From the IMG/VR virus record IMGVR_UViG_3300042382_000594: 64,000 nucleotides of DNA; one strand, 5' to 3'. Positions within the stretch are counted from its first letter, which is position 1; every line of letters begins with the position of its first letter. The notes below the pieces were generated by a model. It saw only the letters and a program-made list of their open reading frames with translations. It was not told the DNA's origin and ran no database searches. This stretch comes from a virus. Its lineage: Duplodnaviria > Heunggongvirae > Uroviricota > Caudoviricetes. Positions 793-64,000 of this stretch are shown one piece after another. The translations under genes were made by a program, and so were the position numbers.

Positions 793-910
793 AGTATAAT
801 CCTATTATCAACAGTAGAGCATAATAAAAAATAGTTGTTGTAAAAATTACTGGGATTAAAAATAACCCCAGTAAAGCAATGAAATTTAGTTTTCTTACCT
901 TATTTAGCAT

Positions 911-1240
911 TTAACTGCATTGACAGTATTTTTTAGCAGGCGGAGCTGAAGTCCAATCATATGGGTGTTCATCAATAGAATTAGGTAATGTAATTGTATC
1001 TCCTTCAAATTTAACATAAGAGTTATCATTTGGATACCATGGAGGTTGAACTCCTCCGCCCACTCCTCCTATAGGACCAACGCCTACGCTTTCTGTAATA
1101 ACAGTAGATTTTTCTCCAATAGATAATTTTCCGTCGAAAATTTTATGCAACTCATTATACAATTCTAATGCATCATGATTAGATAAAATTAATTCTTTTT
1201 TATCAGAAAGCGTAAAAACCAATTTACTTAATTTAGCCAT
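911..1240 (-). CDS. hypothetical protein (Gly-rich centre)
   Basis: ORF track only. No recognised motif. Confidence 0.3.
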   Translation of the reverse strand: MAKLSKLVFTLSDKKELILSNHDALELYNELHKIFDGKLSIGEKSTVITESVGVGPIGGVGGGVQPPWYPNDNSYVKFEGDTITLPNSIDEHPYDWTSAPPAKKYCQCS

Positions 1241-1249
1241 AATAATTCC

Positions 1250-2959
1250 TTAACCGTGACAAGCAACACATTCACCTTTAGTAACATTTACTCCATTTTC
1301 AGATCTAACATAATACAATGATTTAATCCATGGATCTTTAAATGCCAATTTATGAACTTCGCTAATATATTCTTCATCTTCATCAGCTGAAAAGAAGAAA
1401 TTAATGCTTTGAGCTTGATCAATATAACGTTGACGAGCTGATGCTAATCTAACAATTTGTTTTTGATCAATCTCAAAAGCTGTTTTAAATACTGCTTTTT
1501 CATTATCATCTAACCAAGTAACATGTTGAACTGAACCGTTATTACTTATAATGTCTTTAACCACTGCATCTGTATAAACGCCTTTGTTTTTCATCACTGT
1601 TAATAATGATGGGTTAACGCGATCCATTTTACCAGCAGAGGTATTTTGAACATAAGCATTTTTATAAATTGGTTCAATTCCCTGACTAACAGAACCACAG
1701 ATTAAAGCTGAACTGAGATTTGGAGCAATAGCAACTCGATGAGTATTTCTTACACCATAACCTACACACCATTCCGGTTCACCCCAATTTTCTGCCATCC
1801 ATTTAGATGCTCGTAATGATTCCACATCTAAATGTTTAAAGATCTCAGTATTTTTATAATAAGCGTCCATTGATTCAAATGGAATATTATGGTCTTGTAA
1901 ATATGTATGGAACCCAAGCATACCCAAACCAAGAGCTCTAGATGCTGTAGCAAAAGCAACAACTTTTTCCATTCCAGGTTGTGTTTTACCGATTTCAATT
2001 AAATCTTGATTAACACAATCTAGGAATACTGTTGCATTAAATACTGCGTCAGTATCTTTCCACTCATCATAAAGTGAAGCATTCATCGAGGATAAAACGC
2101 AGCTAAATGTATAATCTTCGCTGGAGTGTAAAGCGATCTCCGTACAGAGATTAGATGCATTTACTCTTAATCCTTTATCTTTATACATTTGAGGACTAAG
2201 ATTATTAACTCGATCAACAAAAAAGAAATATCCTTTTCCAGTAATCATTTTAGTTTTTAATGCTAATTGATAACGTAATGTGGCTTCATTATCATTAGCA
2301 TCTAATCGAGCAATAAATTCATCAGTAACAACCCATCCAAGATTTGCATCATCGGGGTTTTTGCTAATAAAATTTACAATCTCATAAAAATCTGGATGAT
2401 CAATTTCAATATACCCAGCCCAAGCTCCGCGACGTTGACTACCTTGAGAAATATCTCTGGACATTTGAATAAAATCTTTAAAGACTGGGAGAACGCCTGA
2501 AGCTCCTCCTTTAACGCCCTTGATAGGAGCTCCACGGTGTCTAATCTTTCCTAGGTAGCCACTAGTACCGAAACCATTTTTACTTAATACAGCAGCCTCT
2601 TGTTGAGCTCCATAGAATCCAAAAACGCTATCTGGAATTTCTCCTCCAGAACAACTAACAGGACAACCAAATCCAGTTCCCATATTAGATAAAACTGGAG
2701 TAGAGGCAGCCAACCAACCATTCCATAATAATTCAAAAAATTTAGGTTGCCATTCATCAGGATTTGGAGTATATTTTGCAGCATGTTTAGTTATTCGATT
2801 ATAAACTGATTTTAAATCTGGACACTCAGCAGAAAGGTTTTTCTCCTTAAGCATTTGCCAAGCAATAGTTGTGCACCATGCAGGCAGTTGACCAGTTTCT
2901 TGTAACTCTTTTCTCTCATCACTCAATTCATCATAAATTGATTTTTCTTGCTTTACCAT
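1250..2959 (-). CDS. nrdA: ribonucleotide reductase class I alpha subunit, short form without ATP-cone
   Basis: 569 aa. Active-site-like NLCTEI motif and C-terminal Cys pair (CVACHG). Immediately upstream of and overlapping the ferritin-like NrdB gene. Confidence 0.7.
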   Translation of the reverse strand: MVKQEKSIYDELSDERKELQETGQLPAWCTTIAWQMLKEKNLSAECPDLKSVYNRITKHAAKYTPNPDEWQPKFFELLWNGWLAASTPVLSNMGTGFGCPVSCSGGEIPDSVFGFYGAQQEAAVLSKNGFGTSGYLGKIRHRGAPIKGVKGGASGVLPVFKDFIQMSRDISQGSQRRGAWAGYIEIDHPDFYEIVNFISKNPDDANLGWVVTDEFIARLDANDNEATLRYQLALKTKMITGKGYFFFVDRVNNLSPQMYKDKGLRVNASNLCTEIALHSSEDYTFSCVLSSMNASLYDEWKDTDAVFNATVFLDCVNQDLIEIGKTQPGMEKVVAFATASRALGLGMLGFHTYLQDHNIPFESMDAYYKNTEIFKHLDVESLRASKWMAENWGEPEWCVGYGVRNTHRVAIAPNLSSALICGSVSQGIEPIYKNAYVQNTSAGKMDRVNPSLLTVMKNKGVYTDAVVKDIISNNGSVQHVTWLDDNEKAVFKTAFEIDQKQIVRLASARQRYIDQAQSINFFFSADEDEEYISEVHKLAFKDPWIKSLYYVRSENGVNVTKGECVACHG

Positions 2960-3957
2960 ACAAATCTTGCCTCTTTCCAGTTGCGGTTGTAGTCACTACC
3001 AGTCGAACTAAAGAAATCGTGTAGTGTAGTTGATTCTAAGTCTTTATAAAACCATTCTGCAATTGGATTCCACGACGGTTTAAAAATAGATTTATAACCT
3101 AATTGTTTTAAACACATGTCTAATCTAGATTCAGTGAAATTATTTAACTGAGTTTCTGTAACACCTTTAATATGACCTTTTTCAAAAGTTTTACCATTAA
3201 TAAATCCATCATGTTCTCTAATTACTCGAGCAGTTTCCTCTAATTCAGAACGTAAATGCAATTCATCTTCTTCGCTAAATTGTCCATCAACTTTTGCTTC
3301 AGCTAATAACGTTCTAAATAACCAAGCACCGCCTTGCGAATGTAAAGATTCATCAATAGCGGAAAAGTTAATTCCAGCATTTACATTAATTGCTTTATTT
3401 TTACCATTTGAATTAAAATGTTTAATAAAAGCAAACTGGCCAAATAAAACAGCTCCTTCAACCATAGAGAAAATTCCAACAGATTTTAATTTATCCATTA
3501 AAGTTTCTCTTTTCGATAAACGTTTACCGATCCATTTCATTCTATTAACTAAAACTTCATCATCTAGATATGATAAGTAAAATTCATCAGTATCTAAACC
3601 TAAAACTTGATTAATTTTATTATAAAAAGGAGCATGAACATTAGTTTCCATAAAAGCAAAGGCATCAGCCATTCTTTGAATATCAGGTCTCGGAAACACC
3701 TGAGCAACATAATTTTTCCAGTATTCATTAACTGAAATTTCATATTTGGTAAATAATTTTAAAGTAGAAGTCAATCCATAGAGTTCCGCTTCGTTAAAAT
3801 TAGTTCTTATATCATGTAGGTCTTTTTCGACCTCAATTTCAAAATCAAACCACATAATTTCTTGCTGTTTTCTAGCAAATTCAATCGCCACTGGGTAATC
3901 AACAGTGTATGTTTCCTTTGGCGTCAGTAATCTAATAGCCATATTAGTCCTTTTCAA
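2953..3957 (-). CDS. nrdB: ribonucleotide reductase class I beta subunit
   Basis: 334 aa ferritin-like protein with E/H metal-site motifs (KYE, ESLHSQG). Seven-nucleotide overlap with nrdA. Confidence 0.7.
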   Translation of the reverse strand: MKRTNMAIRLLTPKETYTVDYPVAIEFARKQQEIMWFDFEIEVEKDLHDIRTNFNEAELYGLTSTLKLFTKYEISVNEYWKNYVAQVFPRPDIQRMADAFAFMETNVHAPFYNKINQVLGLDTDEFYLSYLDDEVLVNRMKWIGKRLSKRETLMDKLKSVGIFSMVEGAVLFGQFAFIKHFNSNGKNKAINVNAGINFSAIDESLHSQGGAWLFRTLLAEAKVDGQFSEEDELHLRSELEETARVIREHDGFINGKTFEKGHIKGVTETQLNNFTESRLDMCLKQLGYKSIFKPSWNPIAEWFYKDLESTTLHDFFSSTGSDYNRNWKEARFVW

Positions 3958-28280: not shown

Positions 28281-28709
28281 TTATTCTATTTGAAATATTT
28301 TAGGCTTTTTATTATCTGGTATTACATTTCTTAGCGATACATATAACATACCATCGGATAATGATACTTTATCGACTTCAACTGTATCAGCTATGGTAAA
28401 TGTTCTAGTAAAATCTCTTTCAGCAATTCCTTTATATAAGAATTCCGAATCTTTTTTAGATTCATCTGGTTTAATTTTACCTGTAACAACAAGTTTACCT
28501 GTATCTAAAGTAACTGAGATTTGATCTTTTGTATATCCAGCAACTGCCATTTTGATAACAAACTTCTCTTCAGACTGTTTGATAATATCATATGGAGGAA
28601 AACCAGTTTGAGGCTTTTCCAATTCAGTGATTCTACGAAATAATTCGTCAAAACCAATTAATGCTGAATTATGAATTGTTCTAAAAGTAGTTAAGTCTTT
28701 AGCGTACAT
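28281..28709 (-). CDS. small heat-shock protein (Hsp20/alpha-crystallin family)
   Basis: Alpha-crystallin domain features (YDIIKQSEEKFVIKMAVAGY...SDGMLYVSL). Confidence 0.85.
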   Translation of the reverse strand: MYAKDLTTFRTIHNSALIGFDELFRRITELEKPQTGFPPYDIIKQSEEKFVIKMAVAGYTKDQISVTLDTGKLVVTGKIKPDESKKDSEFLYKGIAERDFTRTFTIADTVEVDKVSLSDGMLYVSLRNVIPDNKKPKIFQIE

Positions 28710-28790: not shown

Positions 28791-29054
28791 TTAGCCACCA
28801 GCAAAAACGTCTCCCGACCCTGACGCTGAATGGCCACAAGTAGCGGCATCGCCAGCTCGACAAACTGCAATGCCATTAACAAATACTGAACCAGAACCAG
28901 CAGCCATAGTTGGGGAATCATGAGGGGCGACCCCATGACCTGTAACTGCATCACCTTTTCTAACAGCTGCAGCTCCATTAACAAATACATCACCGGATCC
29001 AGCAGCTAATTTACCTCCAGCTGAATCCGTACCTTTTCTAGTAACTCCAGGCAT
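28791..29054 (-). CDS. PAAR-repeat protein (T4 gp5.4-like spike tip)
   Basis: Gly/Ala-rich 87 aa with repeated GDVFVNGAAAVRKGD / GSVFVNGIAVCRAGD (PAAR motifs) and conserved Cys/His. Locally GC-rich DNA. Confidence 0.6.
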   Translation of the reverse strand: MPGVTRKGTDSAGGKLAAGSGDVFVNGAAAVRKGDAVTGHGVAPHDSPTMAAGSGSVFVNGIAVCRAGDAATCGHSASGSGDVFAGG

Positions 29055-29455
29055 TATTTTTTAACTTTGCCGATGTTATATTTACTAACCAAATTATATT
29101 CATCTTTTTCTTTATACGATAAAATTTTAATTTGACTAATTGGAACTAATGGAGATTTACATTCATCTTCATGTCTAATTTCCAATAGTTCCCAATCCCT
29201 TAAAAGGTTTACAATAGTATTTCTTCTAGCAATATCATTTTCACTAATTTCATGAGATTTGTTATCCAGACCAAATAATTCTTTAAAATGGATAATTACA
29301 TATCTACCTTGTTTATGTAAGATATGACATGATTGATATAAAGTTTTATCTTTTTTAGATAATACGCCAATTCTAGATAACGTTTCTTTAATTTTTAAAA
29401 AATTATTCTCATCAATAAATACCTCAACGCCATATCCATTAAAAATGTCACTCAT
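29054..29455 (-). CDS. regA: translational repressor RegA
   Basis: LKIKETLSRIGVLSKKDKTLYQSCHILHKQGRYVIIHFKELF aligns closely with T4 RegA (LKVKETLTRMGIANNKDKVLYQSCHILQKKGLYYIVHFKEML). Confidence 0.9.
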   Translation of the reverse strand: MSDIFNGYGVEVFIDENNFLKIKETLSRIGVLSKKDKTLYQSCHILHKQGRYVIIHFKELFGLDNKSHEISENDIARRNTIVNLLRDWELLEIRHEDECKSPLVPISQIKILSYKEKDEYNLVSKYNIGKVKK

Positions 29456-29498
29456 TTTTATATTTCCTATTTATTCAAAATTATCATAATAATATATT

Positions 29499-29506
29499 TA
29501 TAAATA
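29499..29506 (+). promoter_or_regulatory. T4-type late promoter TATAAATA (plus strand) upstream of GIY-YIG gene
   Basis: Exact TATAAATA, immediately 5' of a hairpin. Confidence 0.45.
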
Positions 29507-29509
29507 TTT

Positions 29510-29540
29510 GTAAGTCGCGATGCGCTAACATCCACTTACA
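29510..29540 (+). promoter_or_regulatory. RNA hairpin (gtaagtcgcgat...acttac) between late promoter and GIY-YIG RBS
   Basis: 6-bp stem with shared tcgcgat core. A paralogous element is upstream of the second plus-strand GIY-YIG gene. Confidence 0.4.
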
Positions 29541-29566
29541 CTAACTGTTATTAAGGAACAATCAGC

Positions 29567-30208
29567 ATGAATATATATTCACCCATCAAACCAACATATC
29601 TTTATATTAAACAACATTCCATTACCGGATTAAAATATTTCGGTAAGACAACTAAAGATCCACGCACATATTTGGGATCAGGAATAAAATGGAAAAGTCA
29701 TATTAAAAAACACGGCAAACAATTTGTAAAAACTTTATGGATTTCAGATTTATATTATGATACATCAATAAAAGAAATTGCGTTACATTTTTCTACGGAA
29801 AACAATATTGTTGAATCAGATAAGTGGGCTAATCTAATCCAGGAAAATGGGTTAGATAGCGGAACTCTTACAAAAAATCAAAAAATTAAAATTTCACAAA
29901 AACAAAAATATAATTGGAATAAAAATAATTCTCCTTATAATGAAGATAGAAACTTAAAATGTTCTAATATTAAAAAAGAACAGTGGGAAGATTTAAAATC
30001 AAAATATAATTCTAATACATATAGACTTCAACAAAAAAAGCTAAAAGAAAAGCAATACGAAGTAATAAATCCAATAGGTACTAAATTTATTATAACTGGG
30101 TTAAAACAATTTTGTAAAGAAAATAATCTCTCAGAACAAAATATGTATAAAGTTTCCAATAAATTAAGAGAGCATCACAAAGGATGGAAATGTAATAAAA
30201 TTATTTAA
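29567..30208 (+). CDS. GIY-YIG homing-endonuclease-like protein (Seg-like), free-standing
   Basis: N-terminal YLYIKQHSITGLKYFGKTT (GIY...YFG) and Lys-rich C-terminal half. Lies on the strand opposite its neighbours, between regA and gene 62. Confidence 0.55.
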   Translation: MNIYSPIKPTYLYIKQHSITGLKYFGKTTKDPRTYLGSGIKWKSHIKKHGKQFVKTLWISDLYYDTSIKEIALHFSTENNIVESDKWANLIQENGLDSGTLTKNQKIKISQKQKYNWNKNNSPYNEDRNLKCSNIKKEQWEDLKSKYNSNTYRLQQKKLKEKQYEVINPIGTKFIITGLKQFCKENNLSEQNMYKVSNKLREHHKGWKCNKII

Positions 30209-30584
30209 TTACCCCGCCTTTGTCTAATATTTGTCTTATAGTTTCCAACTGCAAAGACGTAAGAATTCTTAACGCATCTTTGGCTTTTTCTGATGAATAA
30301 CCGAAATACTCTTTAATTAATGCTATGTCTTTTGATTCATTTGCTTTATACCATTTTTGAAATGGGCGTTTTTTGCTATGTAAAATAAACAAATAAAAAT
30401 CATATTGCATTTTTTTATCTAAGCCAGAATACTGATTCATTTCATTTACATATAACAAACAATCATTATGTTGGCTTAATGCGCGATTTACAATATAAGG
30501 TTCATATTCTTTTTCGTTATCAGATGTAATAATAGATTTTTTAGTTTGAAGCAATGATGGTAAAACTTCTTTAAACAAATCCAT
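30201..30584 (-). CDS. 62: clamp-loader small subunit (T4 gp62-like, by position)
   Basis: 127-aa ORF immediately downstream of gp44, as in T4. No strong motif. Confidence 0.5.
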   Translation of the reverse strand: MDLFKEVLPSLLQTKKSIITSDNEKEYEPYIVNRALSQHNDCLLYVNEMNQYSGLDKKMQYDFYLFILHSKKRPFQKWYKANESKDIALIKEYFGYSSEKAKDALRILTSLQLETIRQILDKGGVIK

Positions 30585-32780: not shown

Positions 32781-32854
32781 TGGAGCGGGATAAGGGAATC
32801 GAACCCTCACTAGGAGATTGGAAATCTGCTGTTCTACCATTAAACTAATCCCGC
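32781..32854 (-). tRNA. tRNA-Gly (anticodon UCC)
   Basis: Manual fold. Acceptor gcgggat/atcccgc, D-arm gttt/gaac, anticodon loop tttccaa, T-arm gaggg-ttcgatt-ccctt, CCA encoded. One C-C mismatch in the anticodon stem. Confidence 0.6.
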
Positions 32855-32860
32855 AATATT

Positions 32861-32937
32861 TGGTGCCCCTCCTAGGACTTGAACCTAGAACCAACCGATT
32901 ATGAGTCGGACGCTCTAACCATTTGAGCTAAAGGGGC
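32861..32937 (-). tRNA. tRNA-Met or Ile2 (anticodon CAU)
   Basis: Manual fold. Anticodon loop ctcataa, T-arm ctagg-ttcaagt-cctag, CCA encoded. Confidence 0.6.
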
Positions 32938-32982
32938 AAATTACATTACTATTATATAACGTAAACGTGTATTAGTCAAGAA

Positions 32983-33165
32983 TTATTTTTTCTGAACTTT
33001 TTTAAAGAAATTATCTAATTTTTTATCGCACTGTTTATTTGAATTTGTTAAAGATTCGACCTTTGCAGTTAAAGCAGCATGATCATCTTGTAACTTAGCT
33101 AAATCGCCTGAACTAGCGCAACCTGTTACAAATAAACATAAACTAACTAAAAATAAAGTTTTCAT
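32983..33165 (-). CDS. Lpp-like coiled-coil lipoprotein
   Basis: Signal peptide with lipobox LFVTGC followed by a helical SSGDLAKLQDDHAALTAKVESLTN region, like Braun lipoprotein. Embedded in the tRNA array. Confidence 0.45.
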   Translation of the reverse strand: MKTLFLVSLCLFVTGCASSGDLAKLQDDHAALTAKVESLTNSNKQCDKKLDNFFKKVQKK

Positions 33166-33187
33166 AACTTTCTCTTATTAAATTAAT

Positions 33188-33264
33188 TGGCGGGCAGGGA
33201 AAGACTCGAACTCTCATCTTTGTGTTTTGGAGGCACATGTTTTATCCAATTAAACTACCTACCC
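33188..33264 (-). tRNA. tRNA-Trp (anticodon CCA)
   Basis: Manual fold. Acceptor gggtagg/cctgccc, anticodon loop ctccaaa, T-arm gagag-ttcgagt-ctttc, CCA encoded. C-A mismatch at the base of the anticodon stem. Confidence 0.5.
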
Positions 33265-33269
33265 AGTAT

Positions 33270-33344
33270 TGGCGTCGCTACGGGGAATCGAACCCCGCTT
33301 ACAAGAATGAAAATCTTGTGTCCTAACCGATAGACGATAGCGAC
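33270..33344 (-). tRNA. tRNA-Glu (anticodon UUC)
   Basis: Manual fold. Acceptor gtcgcta/tagcgac, anticodon stem caaga/tcttg with loop ttttcat, T-arm cgggg-ttcgatt-ccccg, CCA encoded. Confidence 0.55.
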
Positions 33345-33368
33345 AATTATTTTTTAAACCCATTAGGG

Positions 33369-33441
33369 GTGACTAGTGGGACTTGAACCCACAAAATCTC
33401 GAATCACAATCGAGGACGTCTACCAATTCCGTCATAGTCAC
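33369..33441 (-). tRNA. tRNA-His (anticodon GUG)
   Basis: Manual fold. Anticodon stem ctcga/tcgag with loop ttgtgat, T-arm gtggg-ttcaagt-cccac, discriminator C, CCA not encoded. Confidence 0.55.
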
Positions 33442-33458
33442 ACCTAATGGGTCTTATT

Positions 33459-33535
33459 TGGCTCCCAGAGTAAGAATCGAACTTACCTGATAAACTGATT
33501 AACAGTCAGCTGGCACACCTTGCGCCCATCTGGGA
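33459..33535 (-). tRNA. tRNA-Asn (anticodon GUU)
   Basis: Manual fold. Acceptor tcccaga/tctggga, anticodon stem gctga/tcagt with loop ctgttaa, T-arm gtaag-ttcgatt-cttac, CCA encoded. Variable region is unusually long (7 nt). Confidence 0.5.
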
Positions 33536-33543
33536 TTTATCTT

Positions 33544-34167
33544 TTAATTATTTACAATTACATCTAATATTTTTAACTCTAATTCTTGTAGAGTTCCATT
33601 ATTGTCAATTATATAGTCAATATGAGGATTTCCATACCAATCGTATTCAGATTTATGTATATTTTGCGATGCTGCATAAGCATCAAATACAGATTTATCT
33701 AACGAATCAAGATAACCGTACCAGTTAGGTCGTGTTTCTTTTCTATCAATTTGAATAAATACAGCTCCAATAGATTTTAAGAAACTAATCTCGTTTTTAA
33801 ATCTAACATCAGTAATAACTACATTATCATACTGTTGAATTTTTCGCTCAAGAGAATCAACCCAAATTCCATCAAGTAAATTTTCTCTACAAACTTCTGT
33901 ACCAAAATACTGTAGTATATATCTAGGTGTTATAGGTTTATTAAATTTAACCGACCAAAAAGTATCAACAGTTTCACGAAAAACTCTAGATTCTTCGGTG
34001 TCACCTTCTAATAAAGCTCTATCCCAACCAAAAATAGAAGATACTGCATCTTTTAATGAGCCAGCAAAAGATAGAGCAGTAAAATTATTTTCTACTAAAA
34101 TATCGCCAGCAGTTCCTTTTCCAGAACCAATAAAACCAAGTAACCCAATAATCATAATATAACCCAA
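33544..34167 (-). CDS. 1: deoxynucleoside monophosphate kinase (T4 gp1-like)
   Basis: P-loop GFIGSGKGT. VVITDVRFKNEISFLKSIGAVFIQIDR and the C-terminal IDNNGTLQELELKI resemble T4 gp1 (IVPDTRQDHE...GATVIHVVRP, ITNDGSLEELFSKI). Confidence 0.6.
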   Translation of the reverse strand: MGYIMIIGLLGFIGSGKGTAGDILVENNFTALSFAGSLKDAVSSIFGWDRALLEGDTEESRVFRETVDTFWSVKFNKPITPRYILQYFGTEVCRENLLDGIWVDSLERKIQQYDNVVITDVRFKNEISFLKSIGAVFIQIDRKETRPNWYGYLDSLDKSVFDAYAASQNIHKSEYDWYGNPHIDYIIDNNGTLQELELKILDVIVNN

Positions 34168-34171
34168 AACG

Positions 34172-34993
34172 TCAAGAAAGTAAAGACAAATACTTATTCA
34201 TAATATTTGACAAATCTTGTTTTAATAATATTCTTCCATGATATTTAAAAGTATCTCGTAATTGCTCATAACTCTCAGCGTTTTCGGATAAATGTTCGTT
34301 AAACGTAACTAATAATTTTTCTTTAGTTAATCCAGTTGGACTATTATTATCAGTATGTTGACCGCCAGCCATAGAAAACCTATCGCTAAGAGGTACTCGC
34401 GTTTGAATCTGCAACTTTCTAGCTATAAATTCATCGGTCATAGGAGCAAAACCATAATTAAAAATAATAAATCTTGCTGTATTAATTAATCTCGGGTAAT
34501 GCCTGCCTTGGCTATATCTAACAGAATTAGAATGCATTAAACGAGAACCTCTGTGTTCTATAGTATTAGGAACATCTAAACCAACTTTAAGAACATCCCA
34601 TAAAGGAACGTCATACGACAACGTATTTGATCCCCTAAACTCTAATTCATCAACAAAATATAAACATGGAATATATAATTCTTCTTCTTTTGTCGAATTT
34701 AAACTAGCAAAATCGCCAATTAAAAATTCAGTGGTATTTAAACAAACTTTCCAATCAGTTATAGTTGCCTCAATATCCATCACTTCACGATCTACGTCAC
34801 TAGCACTAAAGTCTCGGTTTTTGCTGTTAACTATTTCCCAAGTAGGGCAAATGTGTTTAATAATTTCAACACTTTTATCTGTACTAGCATAATTAATCAA
34901 AATGCCATGATCAAAATATTTTTTATGGTGATTTAACCACCACGGAAGTAAATATTCTTCATTATAAAAATGCGAAATAATAGTTTTTTTCAT
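34172..34993 (-). CDS. putative GT-A glycosyltransferase (DUF23/GT92-like)
   Basis: N-terminal ISHFYNEEYLLPWWLNHH resembles the NE..L.EW..HH motif of GT92/DUF23 proteins. Confidence 0.3.
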   Translation of the reverse strand: MKKTIISHFYNEEYLLPWWLNHHKKYFDHGILINYASTDKSVEIIKHICPTWEIVNSKNRDFSASDVDREVMDIEATITDWKVCLNTTEFLIGDFASLNSTKEEELYIPCLYFVDELEFRGSNTLSYDVPLWDVLKVGLDVPNTIEHRGSRLMHSNSVRYSQGRHYPRLINTARFIIFNYGFAPMTDEFIARKLQIQTRVPLSDRFSMAGGQHTDNNSPTGLTKEKLLVTFNEHLSENAESYEQLRDTFKYHGRILLKQDLSNIMNKYLSLLS

Positions 34994-35008
34994 TTATCAC
35001 CTAAAAAT

Positions 35009-35075
35009 TGGACGCGAAAGGGTGGAATAGAACCGCAAGTTATGAGCCTAGCTATCTACCACTGATATACTTCGC
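35009..35075 (-). tRNA. degenerate tRNA-like element with CAU anticodon loop (possible pseudo-tRNA)
   Basis: Acceptor 6/7 bp, perfect D-arm tatc/gata, anticodon loop ctcataa. The anticodon stem is weak and no canonical T-arm could be folded. Confidence 0.25.
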
Positions 35076-35083
35076 ATAATATT

Positions 35084-35160
35084 TGGTCTCCCATGACAGA
35101 TTCGAACTGCCGACCTATCCGCCCCAAACGGATCGCTCTACCAGACTGAGCTAATGGGAG
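35084..35160 (-). tRNA. tRNA-Pro (anticodon UGG)
   Basis: Manual fold. Acceptor ctcccat/atgggag, anticodon stem atccg/cggat with loop tttgggg, T-arm ggcag-ttcgaat-ctgtc, CCA encoded. Confidence 0.65.
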
Positions 35161-35168
35161 TAATAATT

Positions 35169-35244
35169 TGGAGCCAAAGACAGGAATCGAACCCGCAACA
35201 TCTTCATTACAAGTGAAGCGCTCTACCTATTGAGCTACATTGGC
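35169..35244 (-). tRNA. tRNA-Thr (anticodon UGU)
   Basis: Manual fold. D-arm gctc/gagc, anticodon stem cttca/tgaag with loop cttgtaa, T-arm gcggg-ttcgatt-cctgt, CCA encoded. One U-U mismatch in the acceptor stem. Confidence 0.55.
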
Positions 35245-36164: not shown

Positions 36165-36473
36165 TTAAGTAGTCTCTTTTAAAATTTGTTCGTTAATTTT
36201 ATTTTGTATATCTTCTGGTATTGCGAATATCTTTTCGGTAATCTCGGAATTATATTTAGATGCAGCAGTTTCTCGTACCTTTTTAATTGCTTCGGCTTCT
36301 CTGGATGGAATTAAAGGAATTTTTGAAATATCCTCAGCATAATGAATTTTACACGAATATTCTTGAACTTCATTAAATGCTCGAATATCTTCTATAAAAT
36401 GCCTAAAATGTATTTTACTTAATTTCCAAATAGTAGAAATAGTTACACATGTACGACATTTACTTCTTGTCAT
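36165..36473 (-). CDS. hypothetical protein
   Basis: ORF track. 102 aa. Confidence 0.25.
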   Translation of the reverse strand: MTRSKCRTCVTISTIWKLSKIHFRHFIEDIRAFNEVQEYSCKIHYAEDISKIPLIPSREAEAIKKVRETAASKYNSEITEKIFAIPEDIQNKINEQILKETT

Positions 36474-37071
36474 TTTTACCTCTCTTTTTCGTGATTATGC
36501 GACTCTTTACGAATTTCTTAATTTTTTTATTTAGAGCAGTTTCAGCTCGTTCTAAAACAAATTTAGAAACTTTAGTTTTAAAATCAATTCCATTTAATCT
36601 ATCTATTCCTTGTTGAATAATTCTTGAAGTTAAACCATCGAACCTAGTCATCTTTTCATTTCCTTCAAAATCTTGATATGAAACAATAACTGTAGTAGGG
36701 CGTTTAACTACCATTAATAAACCCATATTACTCAAATCAGATTCTTCTAGTAAAATTTCGCCATGCGATTCAATAACAATAGGATTGAAAAATGCAACAA
36801 AATTATCTGCAACTCCAGCAACCAATACTTTATGCTCTAATCCGCATTGATTTGCAGCAATTCCATATACTTTATGAAATTTACATGTTGCAATTAACTT
36901 TGAAGCAATTTCGCTAGAATTTAATTCAGTATTGGTAAAATCGAAGTGTTTTAACTTTGTAGTTAAAACTGGATCTTTTTGATCACATAATTCATAACCA
37001 AGAAATTGAGGTTCAGGCACTGCTGCAGCCTGAGAAACTACATCAGCAGTATTATATATAAACTCACTCAT
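36460..37071 (-). CDS. peptide deformylase-like protein with substituted metal-ligand motifs
   Basis: Motif 1 is GIAANQCG (PDF GφGφAAxQ). The EGCLS position reads EESDLS and the HExxH position reads QQGIDRLNG. Carries a Lys-rich C-terminal tail. Confidence 0.55.
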   Translation of the reverse strand: MSEFIYNTADVVSQAAAVPEPQFLGYELCDQKDPVLTTKLKHFDFTNTELNSSEIASKLIATCKFHKVYGIAANQCGLEHKVLVAGVADNFVAFFNPIVIESHGEILLEESDLSNMGLLMVVKRPTTVIVSYQDFEGNEKMTRFDGLTSRIIQQGIDRLNGIDFKTKVSKFVLERAETALNKKIKKFVKSRIITKKRGKNDKK

Positions 37072-38789
37072 TGTATAACCTTCATCTTTGAAAAGTTTTT
37101 TATTTTTTCGAACTTTAATACAGTATCGAATTTATCTGATACTTGATCAGACTTATGACTAATAACAAATATATTTGTACTTTTATCAACTGATGATAAT
37201 AAATTCATAAAAACATCAGTACCCCCAGTATCAAGACTGCCGTCCATTATTTCGTCAAGAATTAATAAATTGGTATTTACTGAATTTTTTAATCTAGCTA
37301 ACTGTCTAAATGAAAATAAAATAGCTAAATCTAATCGAGTTTTTTCGCCCTCAGAGAAATTAGCATAAGTAAATTCATCTCTATGACGAGATTTAATTAC
37401 TTCTTCAAAATTTTCATTAATATTAAAATTAACAAAGAAATCTAATTGAGCCAAATACTGATTTATATATTTGTTTAAAATAGGAAGATACTGTTTAATT
37501 ATACGAGTTTTAATTCCTCCGTCCTTTAACATAACAGAAATAAAATCATAATAACTTTTTTCATTTATATATTCTTCATATTTTTCAACATAAACATCTA
37601 ATGATTCAATTAATTCTTGCAGTTTATCTGAACCATTATCAGTGGTATTTGATGAATCTTTTAGTTGATCAATTTCATTAGAAACTAGTTTTATATATTT
37701 TTGCGCAGAAACAATATTTGAATTTTTCTCTGATAAAATACTTGAATTCTTTAAAATTTTAGCGTTTATCTTGGATATAGCAACTAATCTATCAGTAGCA
37801 ACCTTTAATTCCTTAGATAATTTTTTTTCGCCATCAACTAATTCTATTAATTTAGTGCTATTTTTTTCAATAATTTCCTGTTTAAACGCAGAATTAATAG
37901 ATTGACGGCATGTTGGACAATTATCATTTGAATGATAGAATGTATTATCTTTTTCTACCTTAGATATATTATCGCGCAATTTACCTTCAATTAATAATAA
38001 TTTATTTTTCTTTTTTTCAACGACATCCATATCAGAAATTTCATGACCCAGTCGTTCGTTTTCAGACAATAACTCAGAGATAGTTTGCTGTAAATCTTCA
38101 ACTTCAACACAAGTATTTGCAATTAATTCTTTTTTTCTAAGAATTAGTTCATCAGAAACTTGATTGGTACGTTTAATATTTTGTTTTTGAAGTTCTATTT
38201 TGTCTTTAAATAATTCAATATTAAATTTACAATCTTGAACAGTTTCTTTAATTCCAGATACTTTATCTTTAACAATAGAGTTCATGTTAGAAAAAATCTG
38301 AATATCAAGCAAATCTTCAATAACAGAGCGTCTATCTCCAGCTGATAACTGCATAAAAGGAGTATATCTAGCTGAGCCAAGAATAACAACTTGAGTAAAA
38401 GATTTGTAACTCATTTTAAGTATATATCTTTCTAATTGTTCTTGATAATCTTTTACTTTTGCGTCTTGGCGAACTAAATCACCATTACAATAAACTTCAA
38501 AAATATTTGGTTTAATACCACGAATAATTTTATATTTGTTTGGACCAATAGAAAACTCAACTTCAGTAACCAATTCAGATTTATTAATTGAATTTATTAA
38601 ACCGCTTTTGTTAATTTTTCTAAAAGGTTTTCCATAAAGGGCAAAGGTAATTGCATCAATAAATGTTGATTTGCCTTGCCCATTAATTCCAGTGGATAAA
38701 GTAGTTCTATCTTTATTTAATTCAATTTCAGTAAAGTTATTTCCATAGGAAAGAAAGTTTTTAAACCGGATTGTTTCAAAAATTACCAT
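37068..38789 (-). CDS. 46: recombination endonuclease subunit gp46 (Rad50/SbcC-like)
   Basis: N-terminal Walker A GINGQGKST, long coiled coil with zinc-hook-like CPTC, C-terminal signature/Walker B LILDEIMD. Confidence 0.9.
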   Translation of the reverse strand: MVIFETIRFKNFLSYGNNFTEIELNKDRTTLSTGINGQGKSTFIDAITFALYGKPFRKINKSGLINSINKSELVTEVEFSIGPNKYKIIRGIKPNIFEVYCNGDLVRQDAKVKDYQEQLERYILKMSYKSFTQVVILGSARYTPFMQLSAGDRRSVIEDLLDIQIFSNMNSIVKDKVSGIKETVQDCKFNIELFKDKIELQKQNIKRTNQVSDELILRKKELIANTCVEVEDLQQTISELLSENERLGHEISDMDVVEKKKNKLLLIEGKLRDNISKVEKDNTFYHSNDNCPTCRQSINSAFKQEIIEKNSTKLIELVDGEKKLSKELKVATDRLVAISKINAKILKNSSILSEKNSNIVSAQKYIKLVSNEIDQLKDSSNTTDNGSDKLQELIESLDVYVEKYEEYINEKSYYDFISVMLKDGGIKTRIIKQYLPILNKYINQYLAQLDFFVNFNINENFEEVIKSRHRDEFTYANFSEGEKTRLDLAILFSFRQLARLKNSVNTNLLILDEIMDGSLDTGGTDVFMNLLSSVDKSTNIFVISHKSDQVSDKFDTVLKFEKIKNFSKMKVIQ

Positions 38790-39865
38790 TATTCAACCGC
38801 CATTGCTTCAGTATATAAATTAGACATCATAGTCTTCAATTTGTTTTTATCTAATTCTTGTTGATTAATACTATCAATATATTTGTAAGTAATTGTTAAT
38901 GTATCATCAGTTTCATCAACATCCTCATCAATTTCTAAATCAACTACATCTTCAGTAATTGATACATCTATAGGGTTATTCGCATAAACTTGATCGACAA
39001 ATAAATCAAACAAATATGGATTAGTTTTAGCCTTAACTTGAATCTTAACATATTTACCAATTACGTTAGATAAAAATTCTTTATCAAGATAACTGGAATT
39101 AGTGACATCACTAGATCCAGAATCATCATAATCCATCTTATAGAAAATTGAATTTGGATTAAGTACAGTTTCCAATTCCCTAGTTTCTAAGTCAAAAACT
39201 CTAAAACCTTTTGGATCGGCATAATCTTGCCAAGTCATCTCATAAGGAGTCCCTATGTACTCGATATTCCCTCTCTTAGACGCGTGATGATAATGACCGG
39301 ATAATACCCTTTCATAATTAGAAAACGCCTTAGCGGACAATCCATGCTCCGATAGGATACTACTTTGGTACATCTTAAAACCTTCTATTTCAAAATGACC
39401 AACACAAACAGTAGAAGTATCTTGTTTAATAAAATTTAAACATTCTTGATAATTTTCTTTACAAATCCATGGAATAATAGAAATTCCATTGTCAAGTTTA
39501 GTTGGTTCTTTTACAACAGTTACGTTTTTAAACTGAGTTAAAAATAATCCAGAACTACTAATACTCAATGATTCTTTATACGCTAAATCGTGGTTTCCAA
39601 GTAATGTTATTAATTTAATATCAAATTTATCGAACTTAGAAAAGAAATAATTATTAGCTTCAGATAATGTTATATGATTCGTGTATTTTCTTCTATCAAA
39701 TAAATCCCCTAATTGAATAACAGTGCTTATATTATTTTGTATAAGATAAGGAAAAAATACCTGATCATAAAATTTTTCAAAAAACTTATGAAAATACATA
39801 CTGTCGCCTCTTGCACCAAAATGACAATCACCAAGAAAAACTATTTTACTCATAACAAAATCCAA
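38789..39865 (-). CDS. 47: recombination endonuclease subunit gp47 (Mre11/SbcD-like)
   Basis: Calcineurin-like phosphoesterase motifs (VFLGDCHFG, GDLFD, GNHD, GHFE, GHYH). Confidence 0.9.
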   Translation of the reverse strand: MDFVMSKIVFLGDCHFGARGDSMYFHKFFEKFYDQVFFPYLIQNNISTVIQLGDLFDRRKYTNHITLSEANNYFFSKFDKFDIKLITLLGNHDLAYKESLSISSSGLFLTQFKNVTVVKEPTKLDNGISIIPWICKENYQECLNFIKQDTSTVCVGHFEIEGFKMYQSSILSEHGLSAKAFSNYERVLSGHYHHASKRGNIEYIGTPYEMTWQDYADPKGFRVFDLETRELETVLNPNSIFYKMDYDDSGSSDVTNSSYLDKEFLSNVIGKYVKIQVKAKTNPYLFDLFVDQVYANNPIDVSITEDVVDLEIDEDVDETDDTLTITYKYIDSINQQELDKNKLKTMMSNLYTEAMAVE

Positions 39866-39870
39866 AAATA

Positions 39871-39880
39871 ATAAATAATA
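39871..39880 (+). promoter_or_regulatory. near-consensus late promoter (aATAAATAat) upstream of second GIY-YIG gene
   Basis: 7 of 8 positions match TATAAATA. Positioned 6-9 nt 5' of the hairpin, as at 29499. Confidence 0.3.
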
Positions 39881-39885
39881 AAAAA

Positions 39886-39915
39886 GCTACTCGCGATATC
39901 CCCATATCCAGTAGC
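39886..39915 (+). promoter_or_regulatory. RNA hairpin (gctactcgcgat...agtagc) upstream of GIY-YIG RBS
   Basis: 6-bp stem and tcgcgat core, followed by cactaa. Paralogous to the element at 29510-29540. Confidence 0.4.
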
Positions 39916-39929
39916 ACTAAACATTAACC

Positions 39930-40682
39930 GTGTTATCAAAGGAGACAACTATGTCCAGCACAAATACTTATACTGAACAAAAATACTGCGTTTATCATAT
40001 TACATACTCAGGCGATAAGTTATCACCAAAAAATAATTCAAATATAATCCCATCAAATTACATCGGTTCATCTACAATTGATAGTATTAAATCCGGTTAT
40101 ATGGGATCCATAAAATCAAAAATTTATAAAAATATTTGGAAATCAGAATTAAAAACTAATCCACATTTATTTTCTATTGAAATAATATCATATCACGAAA
40201 CTAGACCATCAGCTACCTACAAAGAATTACAAATACAAAAAATATTTAACGTTGTTAAGAATCCATTATTTGTTAACATGGCGTATGCTGCGCCAAATGG
40301 GTTTTTTGGTAGAGATGTTTCGAGAGAAAAACATCCAAATTATAATAAACCGCGAACAAATGATAGTAAAGAAAAAATATCAAAAAATCATGCAAACGTA
40401 TCAGGTAAAAATAATCCAATGTCTAACAAAATTAGAATTACTAATGGTATATTAAATTCTGCAGTAAAACATAAAAATGAAATACCTGATGGATGGTATA
40501 CAGGACTAACATTTAATACTCAACGGAAAAAAGAAACTAACCCCAGAAAAGCATATAAAAAAGAAAATAAAAATCGATCAACAAAAGGCATTAAACGTAA
40601 AAAATTTATTTGTATTATTGAAACCAAGAAAGAATACGATAAAGCAAAAGCAAAAATATATTTTCCTGAATTACCATATTAA
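39930..40682 (+). CDS. GIY-YIG homing-endonuclease-like protein, free-standing
   Basis: CVYHITYSG...NYIGSST (GIY...YIG) with a Lys/Arg-rich C-terminal half. Plus strand between gp47 and gp55. Confidence 0.55.
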   Translation: MLSKETTMSSTNTYTEQKYCVYHITYSGDKLSPKNNSNIIPSNYIGSSTIDSIKSGYMGSIKSKIYKNIWKSELKTNPHLFSIEIISYHETRPSATYKELQIQKIFNVVKNPLFVNMAYAAPNGFFGRDVSREKHPNYNKPRTNDSKEKISKNHANVSGKNNPMSNKIRITNGILNSAVKHKNEIPDGWYTGLTFNTQRKKETNPRKAYKKENKNRSTKGIKRKKFICIIETKKEYDKAKAKIYFPELPY

Positions 40683-41344
40683 TCCTCCAAGAAAGTTTCA
40701 ATTCCTTTAGCTTTTTTCTTTTTCTTCGCTACAGGACTTTTAGTGCTTTTTTTGAATTCAGTATCTTCAAATTTTTGAATAAAATCATACATATTATCAT
40801 AAACTTCAATTTGTTTAATTTGACCTTCACCAAGTTCCAATAACTCAGCTTCATCAAGAATACCGAAATTTTCTGTTGCTTTATATTTTATATACTGCTG
40901 TTTTTTTTCTTTTTGGATCCTACGAACAAAACACCACCAAAGAATCTGAGTAAAATAAGCAAAGGGATTTTTAGTTTTTGCTGAATCAAAATTTTCAAAA
41001 TACATTAAACAGTTTTCAATTCCATCAGCAATCATTTCATCTTTATATGAATACCCAAAGAAATTAGGTCTACGAGCTAATCCCTCTGATAATTTAACGA
41101 AACATTCTCCAATATAATTTGGAATTCTAGGTTTAATTTTCCCTTCAGCTTTAGCAAGAGCGCAATCAGCTTTATATTTCTCTAAAGCAGCGCAAAAATC
41201 AGCATTATTAATATATTCTCGCGTGACCTTTTTTCGTTTTACTTTAGCAACAACGGGTTTTTCTTCCGGAAGATCTTCTAATAAAGAAGGTATTTCTTCA
41301 GTAAAATCTGGAACGTCAGCAAAATCAAATTTTAATTCTTTCAT
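40679..41344 (-). CDS. 55: late-transcription sigma factor gp55
   Basis: [40 protein letters not shown] aligns with T4 gp55 [44 protein letters not shown]. Confidence 0.9.
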   Translation of the reverse strand: [221 protein letters not shown]

Positions 41345-62942: not shown

Positions 62943-64000
62943 TTAAAACTGGGACTTTATTTCGGCTACACTGAAGCTATTACTGTATGCCACATTCTTC
63001 CAGGTCAATAAACTACCAACTTGTACTGGACTTGATCTTGAAGTAGTATCGCCTAATCCTAATTGTCCATAACCATTATATCCCCAAGCCCATGAAGACC
63101 CATCGGTTTTTATAGCTCTAGTAGAAAAGGATGTAGGCGCGTTTGATATTTTATTCCAGTTTAATAGCGATCCAACTTGTACTGGGCTTGATCTATTGAT
63201 TCTATCGATTAATCCTAACTCACCTTGGGTGTTGGTTCCCCAAGCCCATAAAGACCCATCGGTTTTTGTAGCTACTGTATGAAAGTATCCGCCTGATAGA
63301 TTATTCCAAGTCAATAAATTTCCAACTTGAACTGGGCTTGATCTAAAGGTAGTATCGCCTAATCCTAATTGCCCATATTCATTACCTCCCCAAGCCCACA
63401 AAGACCCATCGGTTTTTGTAGCTAACACGTAGTAGCCACCGCCTGCTACCTTATCCCAAGTTAATAAAGATCCAACTTGAACTGGACTTGATCTAGCAAT
63501 ATTATCGCCTAATCCTAATTGCCCTTGCCAGTTATATCCCCAAGCCCATAAAGACCCATCGGTTTTTGTAGCTACTGTATGAAAGTATCCGCATGCCACA
63601 TTCTTCCAGGTCAATAAACTACCAACTTGTACTGGACTTGATCTTGAAGTAGTATCGCCTAATCCTAACTCTCCAGAAGAGTTATATCCGCAAGCCCATA
63701 AAGATCCATCGGTTTTTGTAGCTAAAGTATATTTTCCTCCACATGATACGTTCTTCCATGTCAATAATGATCCAACTTGTACTGGACTTGATCTATGAGT
63801 ACGATCGCCTAATCCTAACTGACCAAATTCATTATATCCCCAAGCCCATAAAGATCCATCGGTTTTTGTAGCTAAAGTGTGTTGACTCCCGCATGCTAAT
63901 TTATTCCAAGTTGTTAAACTTCCAATTTGTACGGGGCTAGATCTAGAAATAGCATTATCGCCTAATCCTAATTGGCCTAAGCCGTTAGCTCCACAAGAGA
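62943..64000 (-). CDS. RCC1-repeat beta-propeller protein (putative fibre/host-recognition protein), N-terminus beyond window
   Basis: About 52-aa repeats with GELGLGDTTSRSSPVQVGSLLTWKNVA..G.HT.A.KTDGSLWAWG.N (RCC1 blade). The reading frame stays open past the TTG used by the ORF track and continues to the window end. Confidence 0.7.
   Translation of the reverse strand, partial: SCGANGLGQLGLGDNAISRSSPVQIGSLTTWNKLACGSQHTLATKTDGSLWAWGYNEFGQLGLGDRTHRSSPVQVGSLLTWKNVSCGGKYTLATKTDGSLWACGYNSSGELGLGDTTSRSSPVQVGSLLTWKNVACGYFHTVATKTDGSLWAWGYNWQGQLGLGDNIARSSPVQVGSLLTWDKVAGGGYYVLATKTDGSLWAWGGNEYGQLGLGDTTFRSSPVQVGNLLTWNNLSGGYFHTVATKTDGSLWAWGTNTQGELGLIDRINRSSPVQVGSLLNWNKISNAPTSFSTRAIKTDGSSWAWGYNGYGQLGLGDTTSRSSPVQVGSLLTWKNVAYSNSFSVAEIKSQF
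62990..64000. repeat. tandem DNA repeats (about 156-nt unit) encoding the RCC1 blades
   Basis: Near-identical 50-60-nt blocks recur at 63041, 63341 and 63641 (cctaattg.ccat. .cattat. .ccccaagcccat...), and again at 63241 and 63541 (ccaagcccataaagacccatcggtttttgtagctactgtatgaaagtatccgc). Confidence 0.7.

Follow-up and report, generated by a model that had tools for sequence, protein, structure and literature searches.

The stretch of viral DNA considered here, 64,000 nucleotides (nt) long and referred to as the window (IMG/VR record IMGVR_UViG_3300042382_000594), comes from a T4-like myophage, marine or aquatic, that is AT-rich and has no close relative in culture; its gp55 gene has ~72% nucleotide identity to those of Methylophilales phage Melnitz, Pelagibacter phage HTVC008M and cyanomyophages. 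The minus strand carries replication and recombination genes, among them gp46 (37068-38789), gp47 (38789-39853), gp55 (40679-41344), regA (29054-29455) and gp62 (30201-30584). Two plus-strand open reading frames (ORFs) interrupt this order: HEG2 (39951..40682), a predicted free-standing homing endonuclease of 243 amino acids (aa) between gp55 and gp47, and HEG1 (29567..30208), a putative endonuclease of 213 aa that lies as an antisense insertion between gp62 and regA. Each of these homing endonuclease genes (HEGs) is headed by a cassette built around a bulged hairpin, and sequence comparison marks the cassette as a sharply bounded, portable 5' module of ~120 bp that belongs to free-standing HEGs in aquatic T4-like phages. 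What the cassette does is the subject of this account.

The hairpin ahead of HEG2 (39886..39915) is real and, as the initial annotation had proposed, has the same architecture as the one ahead of HEG1 (29510..29539). Both are 30 nt long; the outer stem has 6 bp, and inward of it come a bulged C, a single R:Y pair, a second bulged C and an inner stem closed by G:C. ACTAA follows each, and the common TCGCGAT core and trailing CACTAA are present in both. (They are designated P2, or stem-loop 2, SL2, below, and are assigned to the minus strand, that of the proposed antisense RNA.) Their spacing, supposed to be the same, differs: 8 nt separate late box and hairpin at HEG2 and 3 nt at HEG1, and the distances from hairpin to ATG are 35 and 27 nt, respectively. 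A sense late-promoter-like box does precede the HEG2 hairpin, but it is the octamer AATAAATA at 39870..39877 (+) rather than a decamer at 39871-39880. Because exact TATAAATA is not rare in this AT-rich window (16 observed, 19 expected), a single late box carries little information. On the HEG1 side, TATTTATAAATA (29495..29506) comprises overlapping exact late boxes on both strands, the plus-strand box facing HEG1 and the minus-strand box facing regA, 40 nt away; regA may thus draw a late promoter from the outer edge of this cassette.

Similarity between the two upstream regions, on which the idea of a common element had been founded, does not stand up to shuffling. The score of their best ungapped match (21/30 identical, score 12) is reached in 71 of 2000 dinucleotide shuffles, and 230 of 2962 windows drawn at random from the genome reach it too; plain similarity is marginal and not significant, and the case therefore rests on comparative data. 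A covariance model, R1, was built from 14 upstream regions of HEG2 homologues in IMG/VR. Scanned over both strands of the window, it finds only two sites, the HEG1 hairpin at 49.0 bits and the HEG2 hairpin at 47.7 bits (E~1e-10). TCGCGAT is enriched in the window (14 occurrences, 3.6 expected); the other sites were rejected as copies of the hairpin, being intragenic and lacking one. Rfam has no family for the cassette, only seven tRNAs passing the gathering score over the window; at 39840-39960, with E<=10 allowed, it returns only a chance preQ1-II match (E 1.4).

Among the upstream regions of HEG2 homologues in IMG/VR the same hairpin recurs with different but complementary stems, and in most HEG1-family loci an R1 match lies 55-100 nt ahead of the start codon. 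A DNA pattern that takes no account of protein matched at least 116 viral stretches; in 596 Gbp of cellular genomes it matched 23 times, only five of these loci being true hairpins, all on contigs of metagenome-assembled genomes. In the 46 distinct copies used to assess covariation, 97.8% of cells are paired and all ten base pairs exhibit compensatory double changes. The covariation score, 0.85 as against 0.28 for shuffled alignments, is reached by none of 500 shuffles, nor do register shifts come close. Genomic context was assessed for 101 distinct cassettes, every one of which lies beside a HEG or a HEG remnant; a hairpin without a HEG, which would have spoken against the idea of a travelling element, was looked for among them and none was found. 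The ORF downstream is endonuclease-like in all 101, and these ORFs are of at least eight sequence types. Pfam cut-offs are passed by the canonical GIY-YIG and the SegE-like ones; those that are HNH-like or Zn-finger-like were identified from motif only. Of 92 complete downstream ORFs, 89 have at least 120 codons, the other three being truncated HEG remnants. The initial annotation's suggestion of a mobile non-coding cassette that moves together with the endonuclease gene is thus borne out: it occupies many genomic sites and is absent, together with the HEG, from empty alleles.

The boundaries of the cassette are mosaic. Window positions 39869-39988 are 96-100% identical to the cassettes of different HEGs elsewhere (contigs L003 and L005), with flanks and ORF bodies that are only 45-80% identical. 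The HEG1 and HEG2 proteins have no similarity detectable by BLASTP, and gene duplication therefore does not explain their common cassette.

On the HEG strand, the order of elements is late box, bulged hairpin, CTAAWCAT, Shine-Dalgarno sequence (SD), ATG-WCC-AGC and, in codons 5-8, an inverted late box (TATTTATA). A sense late box (TATAAATA/NATAAATA) is found no more than 45 nt upstream of the hairpin in 71/101 cassettes, most often at a distance of 3-5 nt, which would put the first nucleotide of a late sense transcript within the outer stem. The consensus reading from the ATG, ATG WCC AGC AMA AnT ATT TAT A, ends abruptly at ORF nt 22, and its third codon positions are kept though residues vary. 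In a short-leader subclass, to which HEG1 belongs, the DNA block is unchanged and the ATG is displaced inwards by 9 nt. What is conserved is therefore the nucleotide sequence, which explains why unrelated nucleases (GIY-YIG, SegE-like, HNH-like, Zn-finger-like) have the leader M-[ST]-S-x-x-[IT]-Y, typically M-S-S-x-N-I-Y-T, in common; in the AlphaFold model of HEG2 it is disordered. The orientation of these HEGs is likewise patterned: ~77% are antisense to both neighbours, the co-oriented ones lie in late structural regions (for example, after gp23) and retain the cassette, and the HEGs follow the direction of late transcription.

Wobble pairs distinguish the two strands of the hairpin. Counted on the HEG strand, 83 distinct hairpins have 815 Watson-Crick pairs, 14 A.C or C.A pairs and no G.U pairs; counted on the opposite strand, they have 14 G.U and no A.C. 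All wobble pairs thus lie on the strand opposite the HEG. When that strand is analysed with RNAalifold, a second helix, P1a, emerges, in which CUGGWCAU pairs with AUGWUUAG, respectively the complements of ATG plus codons 2-3 and of the conserved CTAAWCAT box. (In the HEG2 cassette the 5' strand of P1a is CUGGACAU at 39951..39958, minus strand; the box is CTAAACAT in the sense direction, and its complement, AUGUUUAG, provides the 3' strand at 39917..39924, also minus.) Pairing in P1a amounts to 100% for the antisense strand, as against 75% for the sense strand; the helix includes two near-invariant G.U pairs and has a W:W pair that covaries (UA 21, AU 18, GU 6); this result recurs in 40 further matches, most of them from loci outside the model building. 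In the short-leader subclass (alignment A7) it is the inner pairs of the corresponding stem-loop 1 (SL1) that covary. Minimum free energies (MFE) are lower for the antisense than for the sense strand in 83 of 83 cassettes (means -21.1 and -13.1 kcal/mol), and the antisense fold has a regular order: a 5' stem-loop, usually with an apical anti-SD, the bulged hairpin and a U-rich stretch. What is expected of a cis-antisense RNA, conserved and stable structure specific to the antisense strand, is present. The pairing of the hairpin fits the strand opposite the HEG, and it is probably not a 5'-untranslated region (UTR) element of HEG mRNA.

The consensus at ORF nt 15-22, TATTTATA, is the reverse complement of the T4 late promoter; 31/101 cassettes have it exactly and another 39/101 with one mismatch (70/101 in all). 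The HEG2 version, in codons 5-8 at 39965..39972 (-), reads TACTTATA in the sense and TATAAGTA in the antisense direction, one mismatch from TATAAATA; that of HEG1, at 29572..29579 (-; antisense AATATATA), is degenerate, with two mismatches. The phage encodes gp55. The late-promoter-like boxes of the window's cassettes read AATAAATA and TATAAATA in the sense direction, TATAAGTA and AATATATA in the antisense direction. T4 late promoters have their box at -13 to -6. By that geometry, the antisense +1 is predicted to be the G directly 5' of P1a, a prediction made when the helix had not yet come to light. The antisense RNA predicted for HEG2, ~80 nt (39880..39959, -, both ends being predictions), would consist of this G, SL1 (P1a and P1b, with the anti-SD UCUCCU in its apical part), SL2 and a U-tract; its computed MFE is -23.5 kcal/mol (z -2.55), and it scores 80 bits with a full-length model, R2. 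The HEG1 counterpart (29505..29566, -), of the short-leader subclass, would have an SL1 formed by GCUGAUUGUU and AACAGUUAGU, with the anti-SD in its loop, and then SL2 (MFE -18.9 kcal/mol, z -2.97; R2 48.7 bits). On the antisense strand, SL2 is followed by UUUUUUAUUAUUU in the HEG2 copy and by AAAUAUUU in the HEG1 copy, and at least 4 U within 2 nt of SL2 are found in 50/101 cassettes.

Searching for the cassette among cultured phages yields little. When a cassette is compared by blastn with 50,697 phage records of GenBank, chance matches only are obtained, and the HEG homologues of a Vibrio phage and of Synechococcus phage S-SRM01 lack it. The sole cultured phage found with a copy, a diverged one, is Pseudoalteromonas phage vB_Psh_XG4 (37.6 bits with R1, 45.3 bits with R2). 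That copy (PP712099.1, around 56.1 kb; L419:1416-1491) has the hairpin and an SL1-like stem, without the M-S-S leader and without a CTCTAA box, and lies upstream of an anti-oriented GIY-YIG-like ORF in an otherwise unannotated record.

The explanation that we favour, and to which we would give about an even chance of being correct, is that the portable 5' cassette encodes a cis-antisense RNA of 65-85 nt covering the ribosome-binding site of the HEG. Two late promoters would stand face to face, the inner, inverted box driving synthesis of the antisense RNA, which would begin at the G one base before helix P1. The first eight paired nucleotides, including the anti-AUG, would pair with the complement of CTAAWCAT to form SL1, whose apex would display the anti-SD; the hairpin would follow as SL2, with a U-rich tail after it, and would serve as terminator or stabiliser. 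Such an RNA, complementary over its full length to the region of the HEG mRNA at which translation begins, would hold down synthesis of the nuclease, by a logic like that of IS10 RNA-OUT/RNA-IN or of a type I antitoxin. Some HEGs, co-oriented with their neighbours in late-gene regions, retain the cassette in places where those neighbours cannot supply antisense transcription, which counts in favour of this explanation.

Several considerations weigh on the other side. Use of the promoter and the 5' and 3' ends of the antisense RNA are predictions. The inverted box is exact in fewer than a third of the cassettes (the 31 already referred to), ~27-30% are changed at box positions 5 or 6, both copies in the window included, and these positions are well conserved in T4 late promoters; AT-only octamers are, moreover, common in this genome. 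A clear U-tract follows SL2 in only about half of the cassettes, and a simple terminator scan of the window does not call the hairpin (a consensus terminator scan misses it because of the bulges). As for the strand, not all of the 14 A.C cases arose independently in phylogeny (they represent ~11 lineages), and strand-biased G-to-A mutation could contribute to them. P1a has one truly covarying pair only, and the antisense strand is rich in G and U, which by itself lowers its MFE.

The cassette might be read instead on the other strand, as an element of the HEG mRNA's 5'-UTR lying downstream of a late promoter, where the hairpin would stabilise the message or tune its translation and the CTAAWCAT box would pair with AUGWCCAG, masking the start codon. 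This was the implicit view of the initial annotation, and it is the published T-even paradigm: late promoter plus hairpin is the control layout of I-TevI, I-TevII, I-TevIII, segB and mobE, seg43(25) has a known non-sequestering hairpin (PMC2988022), and Dassa et al. (2009; PMC2677866) read the hairpins upstream of marine HEGs as sequestering the ribosome-binding site. On the sense strand, too, the hairpin is able to fold (z -2.6 in the case of HEG2). Against this stand the absence of G.U and the 14 A.C among ~830 pairs on the HEG strand, and the state of P1a, which as a sense helix (75% paired) has two near-invariant A.C mismatches, though its non-coding partner is free to change, and which MFE folding of the sense strand does not form. 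The SD lies outside the hairpin, 13-23 nt downstream, so that assignment to the sequestering type exemplified by I-TevI and mobE was rejected; the modal 3-5-nt spacing of box and hairpin places the late +1 inside the stem; and, most of the HEGs being antisense to their neighbours, there is no early read-through mRNA to silence. We consider the sense-strand reading unlikely. That the folded strand is that of the flanking genes in ~77% of loci draws attention to another possibility, namely that the RNA in question is the host operon's: read-through from gp55 or gp62 would carry the antisense cassette ahead of gp47 or regA, its two stem-loops acting as insulator, RNase-protective 5' structure or attenuator and so limiting the polarity of the insertion. 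Insertion does split gene pairs that overlap or abut (TAATG at gp55/gp47; gp62/regA abutting), SL1 would bury an anti-SD otherwise able to pair with downstream ribosome-binding sites, and the outer edge of the HEG1 cassette has its exact late box facing regA. Yet the cassette is no less conserved beside late structural genes that run in the direction of the HEG, where its antisense strand is part of no operon; the distance to the next gene ranges from ~30 to >300 nt; neither a conserved inverted box nor a helix at the predicted +1 is needed for such a function; and the U6 tract after the HEG2 hairpin would terminate transcription just ahead of gp47. An operon-insulating role also strikes us as improbable.

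Lastly, the cassette might act as DNA: a patch of homology, like the PeSL cassettes that mediate such shuffling in T4-like phages (PMC2839356, PMC4122927), by which endonuclease bodies and sites are exchanged, RNA structure being incidental, or, in a variant, a hairpin functioning in single-stranded DNA. The near-identity of 39869-39988 to the cassettes of L003 and L005 between flanks and bodies of 45-80% identity is what recombination would leave, as is the placing of one cassette at the head of at least eight nuclease sequence types. Compensatory changes in two helices, strand-specific wobble and conserved bulges are left unexplained, however, and PeSLs are units of early (sigma-70) promoter and terminator, unlike the cassette. 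As a full explanation we regard this as very unlikely, although a role in recombination may coexist with an RNA role rather than replace it. Each of the three alternatives leaves part of the evidence unexplained.

The sites at which the two HEGs reside are also known in the empty state. The segment 39854..40678 (825 nt, cassette plus HEG2) is absent from seven viral contigs (L117-L121, L124, L139), in which gp55 and gp47 are joined by a TAATG stop/start overlap and whose gp55 is identical to that of the window in amino acid sequence and 98.3% identical in nucleotides. Across this junction, HEG-bearing and HEG-less gp47 genes diverge on one side: nucleotide identity is 70-78% in the first ~300 nt of the gene, ~92% at nt 300-420 and ~100% beyond nt 420, so that 39440..39853 (-) is the probable co-conversion tract and target-site region. 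In HEG1-less contigs, gp62 and regA abut and regA is 99-100% identical; the divergent part is the 3' half of gp62 (30201..30392, -; 56-83% nucleotide identity), to be compared with ~94% in the 5' half of gp62 and 97-98% in regA. Covariance-model scanning finds no cassette in empty alleles at either site. Divergence confined to one side in this way is what homing is expected to leave behind, through co-conversion and change of the target site, and HEG2, with its presence/absence polymorphism and a divergent flank beside the insertion, behaves as a homing element. These comparisons uphold the initial annotation's proposal that conserved gene junctions are the targets of HEGs: at each empty site two genes overlap or abut, and the HEG2-less relatives have gp55 and gp47 abutting, with no cassette between. 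With these paired alleles, target sites in gp47 (5' part) and gp62 (3' part) are open to direct test. Near-identical phages differ in their sets of HEGs; L117 and L318 lack both at these sites. Contig L005 (IMGVR_UViG_3300042482_000841; 863-3685) has HEG1 between regA and gp62 and a second HEG2-family gene elsewhere, upstream of the gene encoding the large clamp-loader subunit, with a cassette identical to that of HEG2 in the window.

HEG2 was also said to occupy the slot of alpha-gt between genes 47 and 55, and this is apt: T4 itself carries alpha-gt in that interval, and coliphage IME08 has a-gt.2, a-gt.3 and a-gt.4 there. In Escherichia phage IME08 (NC_014260; L312:2501-3049) an unannotated HEG2-family ORF lies directly before gp47 and after a-gt.2; it is co-oriented and has no cassette. 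(The gp47 annotation of IME08 is over-extended and covers part of this ORF.)

An ORF at 39930-40682 (+) is present as described, and its true start is almost certainly the ATG at 39951, not the GTG at 39930: the SD, AAGGAG (39939-39944), lies ahead of this ATG, and the N-terminus MSSTNTYTEQK is kept in homologues. The HEG2 protein appears to consist of a divergent GIY-YIG-like N-terminal domain (residues ~12-115), a borderline NUMOD3 (20.2 bits for a Pfam cut-off of 20.4) and a C-terminal tail, FICIIETKKEY..FPELPY. It matches PHROG families 10820 and 314, both of homing endonucleases; among its 125 homologues the ~115-aa N-terminal domain is conserved and C-termini vary. The AlphaFold model of that domain (pLDDT >90) has the order beta-beta-alpha-alpha-beta-alpha, and Foldseek against the PDB places the I-TevI catalytic domain in the top three positions (probabilities 0.96, 0.93 and 0.72; E 0.04; TM 0.57 on the target), which is modest support for a GIY-YIG alpha/beta fold. 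Profile search of PDB sequences gives no match, and neither does the query against the Pfam GIY-YIG profiles PF01541 and PF19835 (SegE_GIY-YIG), the latter being matched weakly by 2 of 39 family members (E 0.0019). Residues Y15/Y19, Y37-x-G39, E92 and N109 are invariant in the family alignment, which has no invariant Arg or Lys at the position of I-TevI R27. Because of the I-TevI fold match, the weak SegE matches and the lack of an invariant Arg, we call HEG2 GIY-YIG-like and divergent, an assignment with modest support from predicted fold and motif; the plain label GIY-YIG that it had been given holds as to fold and motif but not as to any Pfam match of the query. The HEG1 family, with its motif TYLYIKQH..GLKYFGKT, is very abundant, with 415 related loci in viral contigs. 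HEG1 matches no nuclease in Pfam, and searches for GIY-YIG or HNH domains there were negative for both HEG1 and HEG2. A terminator-like stem with a T-run inside the HEG2 coding region (40279-40304, +), at the conserved MAYAAPNGFFG, may be coincidental. HEGs with different N-terminal nuclease types have in common a C-terminal tail of ~28 aa, F[LI][SC]II[ED]T[KR]K[TE]Y..K......[FY]P[ED][LF]K.[YF][YF], to which Pfam makes no assignment (window 40608-40682; L197:4271-5161, L233:806-1573, L272:355-1212, L100:1833-2615). This suggests that HEGs carry a conserved 3' module besides the 5' cassette.

Other features of the window may be referred to briefly. Seven tRNA genes identified with Rfam cluster at 32784-35244 (-), between the clamp-loader and gp46 regions, and a peptide deformylase gene (36460-37071, -; Pfam E 2.9e-22) lies directly downstream of gp46; in Synechococcus phage S-SRM01 the peptide deformylase gene likewise adjoins a HEG. 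Directly downstream of regA lie a PAAR-motif gene that is rich in G+C and contains a direct repeat (28791-29054, -; family D8) and, beside it, an Hsp20-family gene (28281-28709, -). A tandem array at 62987-63980, with a period of 150 nt, 6.5 copies of ~75% identity and in-frame 50-aa units, reaches the end of the window; its gene probably encodes a repeat-domain structural or fibre protein.

Should the favoured explanation hold, these cassettes would constitute an undescribed and abundant family of structured cis-antisense RNAs, a universal and exchangeable 'safety catch' for free-standing HEGs of many nuclease types in aquatic T4-like phages, a generalisation that we rate a little short of an even chance. 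Each RNA would have two stem-loops and its own late promoter buried in the common leader peptide; the M-S-S-x-N-I-Y-T leader would exist for the sake of the opposite-strand RNA and its promoter and not for the protein, so that this puzzling peptide and the orientation of HEGs along late transcription would both find an explanation. To our knowledge, the ways in which selfish endonuclease genes are prevented from doing harm in tightly packed phage genomes have been learned from no more than a handful of T-even cases, and in each the device is a sense-strand hairpin. Were one portable module to serve HEGs of many unrelated types, it would represent a second solution of a general kind. For the annotation of uncultured phage genomes, the cassette would add an RNA family with strong covariation and no Rfam match, and it could be used as a marker of HEG 5' ends and insertion boundaries.

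It remains to compare the cassette with known systems. The hairpins of the T-even HEGs I-TevI, I-TevII, I-TevIII and segB and of Aeh1 mobE, which sequester the ribosome-binding site, resemble it in having a late promoter beside a hairpin just upstream of the HEG (PMC2988022), and they confine expression to late times, as would the cassette. Theirs is a late promoter inside the hairpin and an SD in its stem; in the cassette the box is upstream and the SD outside, the pairing fits the opposite strand, and most of the HEGs are antisense to their neighbours. Closer to the present material, Dassa et al. (2009; PMC2677866) describe, for marine 'fractured-gene' HEGs of the GIY-YIG and Vsr-like families, upstream hairpins, TATAAATA and two conserved motifs that are complementary to each other and common to the families; to judge by that description, these may be the same cassette. 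PeSLs, too, are short repeated modules of promoter plus stem-loop with sharp boundaries that serve as points of modular exchange. They differ in being early-promoter/terminator units between ORFs of hyperplastic regions that are not tied to endonucleases (PMC2839356, PMC4122927), and in having neither a two-helix RNA supported by covariation nor an inverted late box. Identity with PeSLs was rejected, the conserved boxes of the cassette being of late type; sigma-70-like sites, scanned for over the window, do not exceed shuffle expectation and none is positioned on the cassette. The cassette is distinct both from the T-even scheme of ribosome-binding-site sequestration and from PeSL cassettes.

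Antisense transcription over the 5' end of a phage HEG has a precedent in CfrI of cyanophage S-PM2, an antisense RNA that is expressed and overlies F-CphI at its 5' end (Millard et al. 2010; PMC2984593, PMC5931967; NC_006820). Like the RNA proposed here, CfrI has its start within the 5' coding part of a free-standing HEG and crosses the start codon into the upstream region. It differs in its length (~200-225 nt), in extending into psbA and in being found in a single phage, whereas the cassette occurs in hundreds of contigs. Homology of the two was rejected: the CfrI region has no R1 match, no inverted TATAAATA and no bulged hairpin. The remaining comparison is with IS10, in which RNA-OUT and RNA-IN control the element's own nuclease gene. 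There is no sequence or structural homology between IS10 and the cassette, in which both promoters would be phage late promoters, two stem-loops are predicted where IS10 has one and a HEG stands in place of a transposase gene, and whose transcription and repressive action are predictions. As proposed, its layout nevertheless resembles that of IS10: an outward-directed promoter would lie in the first codons of a nuclease gene, face to face with the promoter of that gene, and would give rise to a short antisense RNA that folds stably and is complementary to the start region with its SD, the whole element travelling with the mobile DNA.

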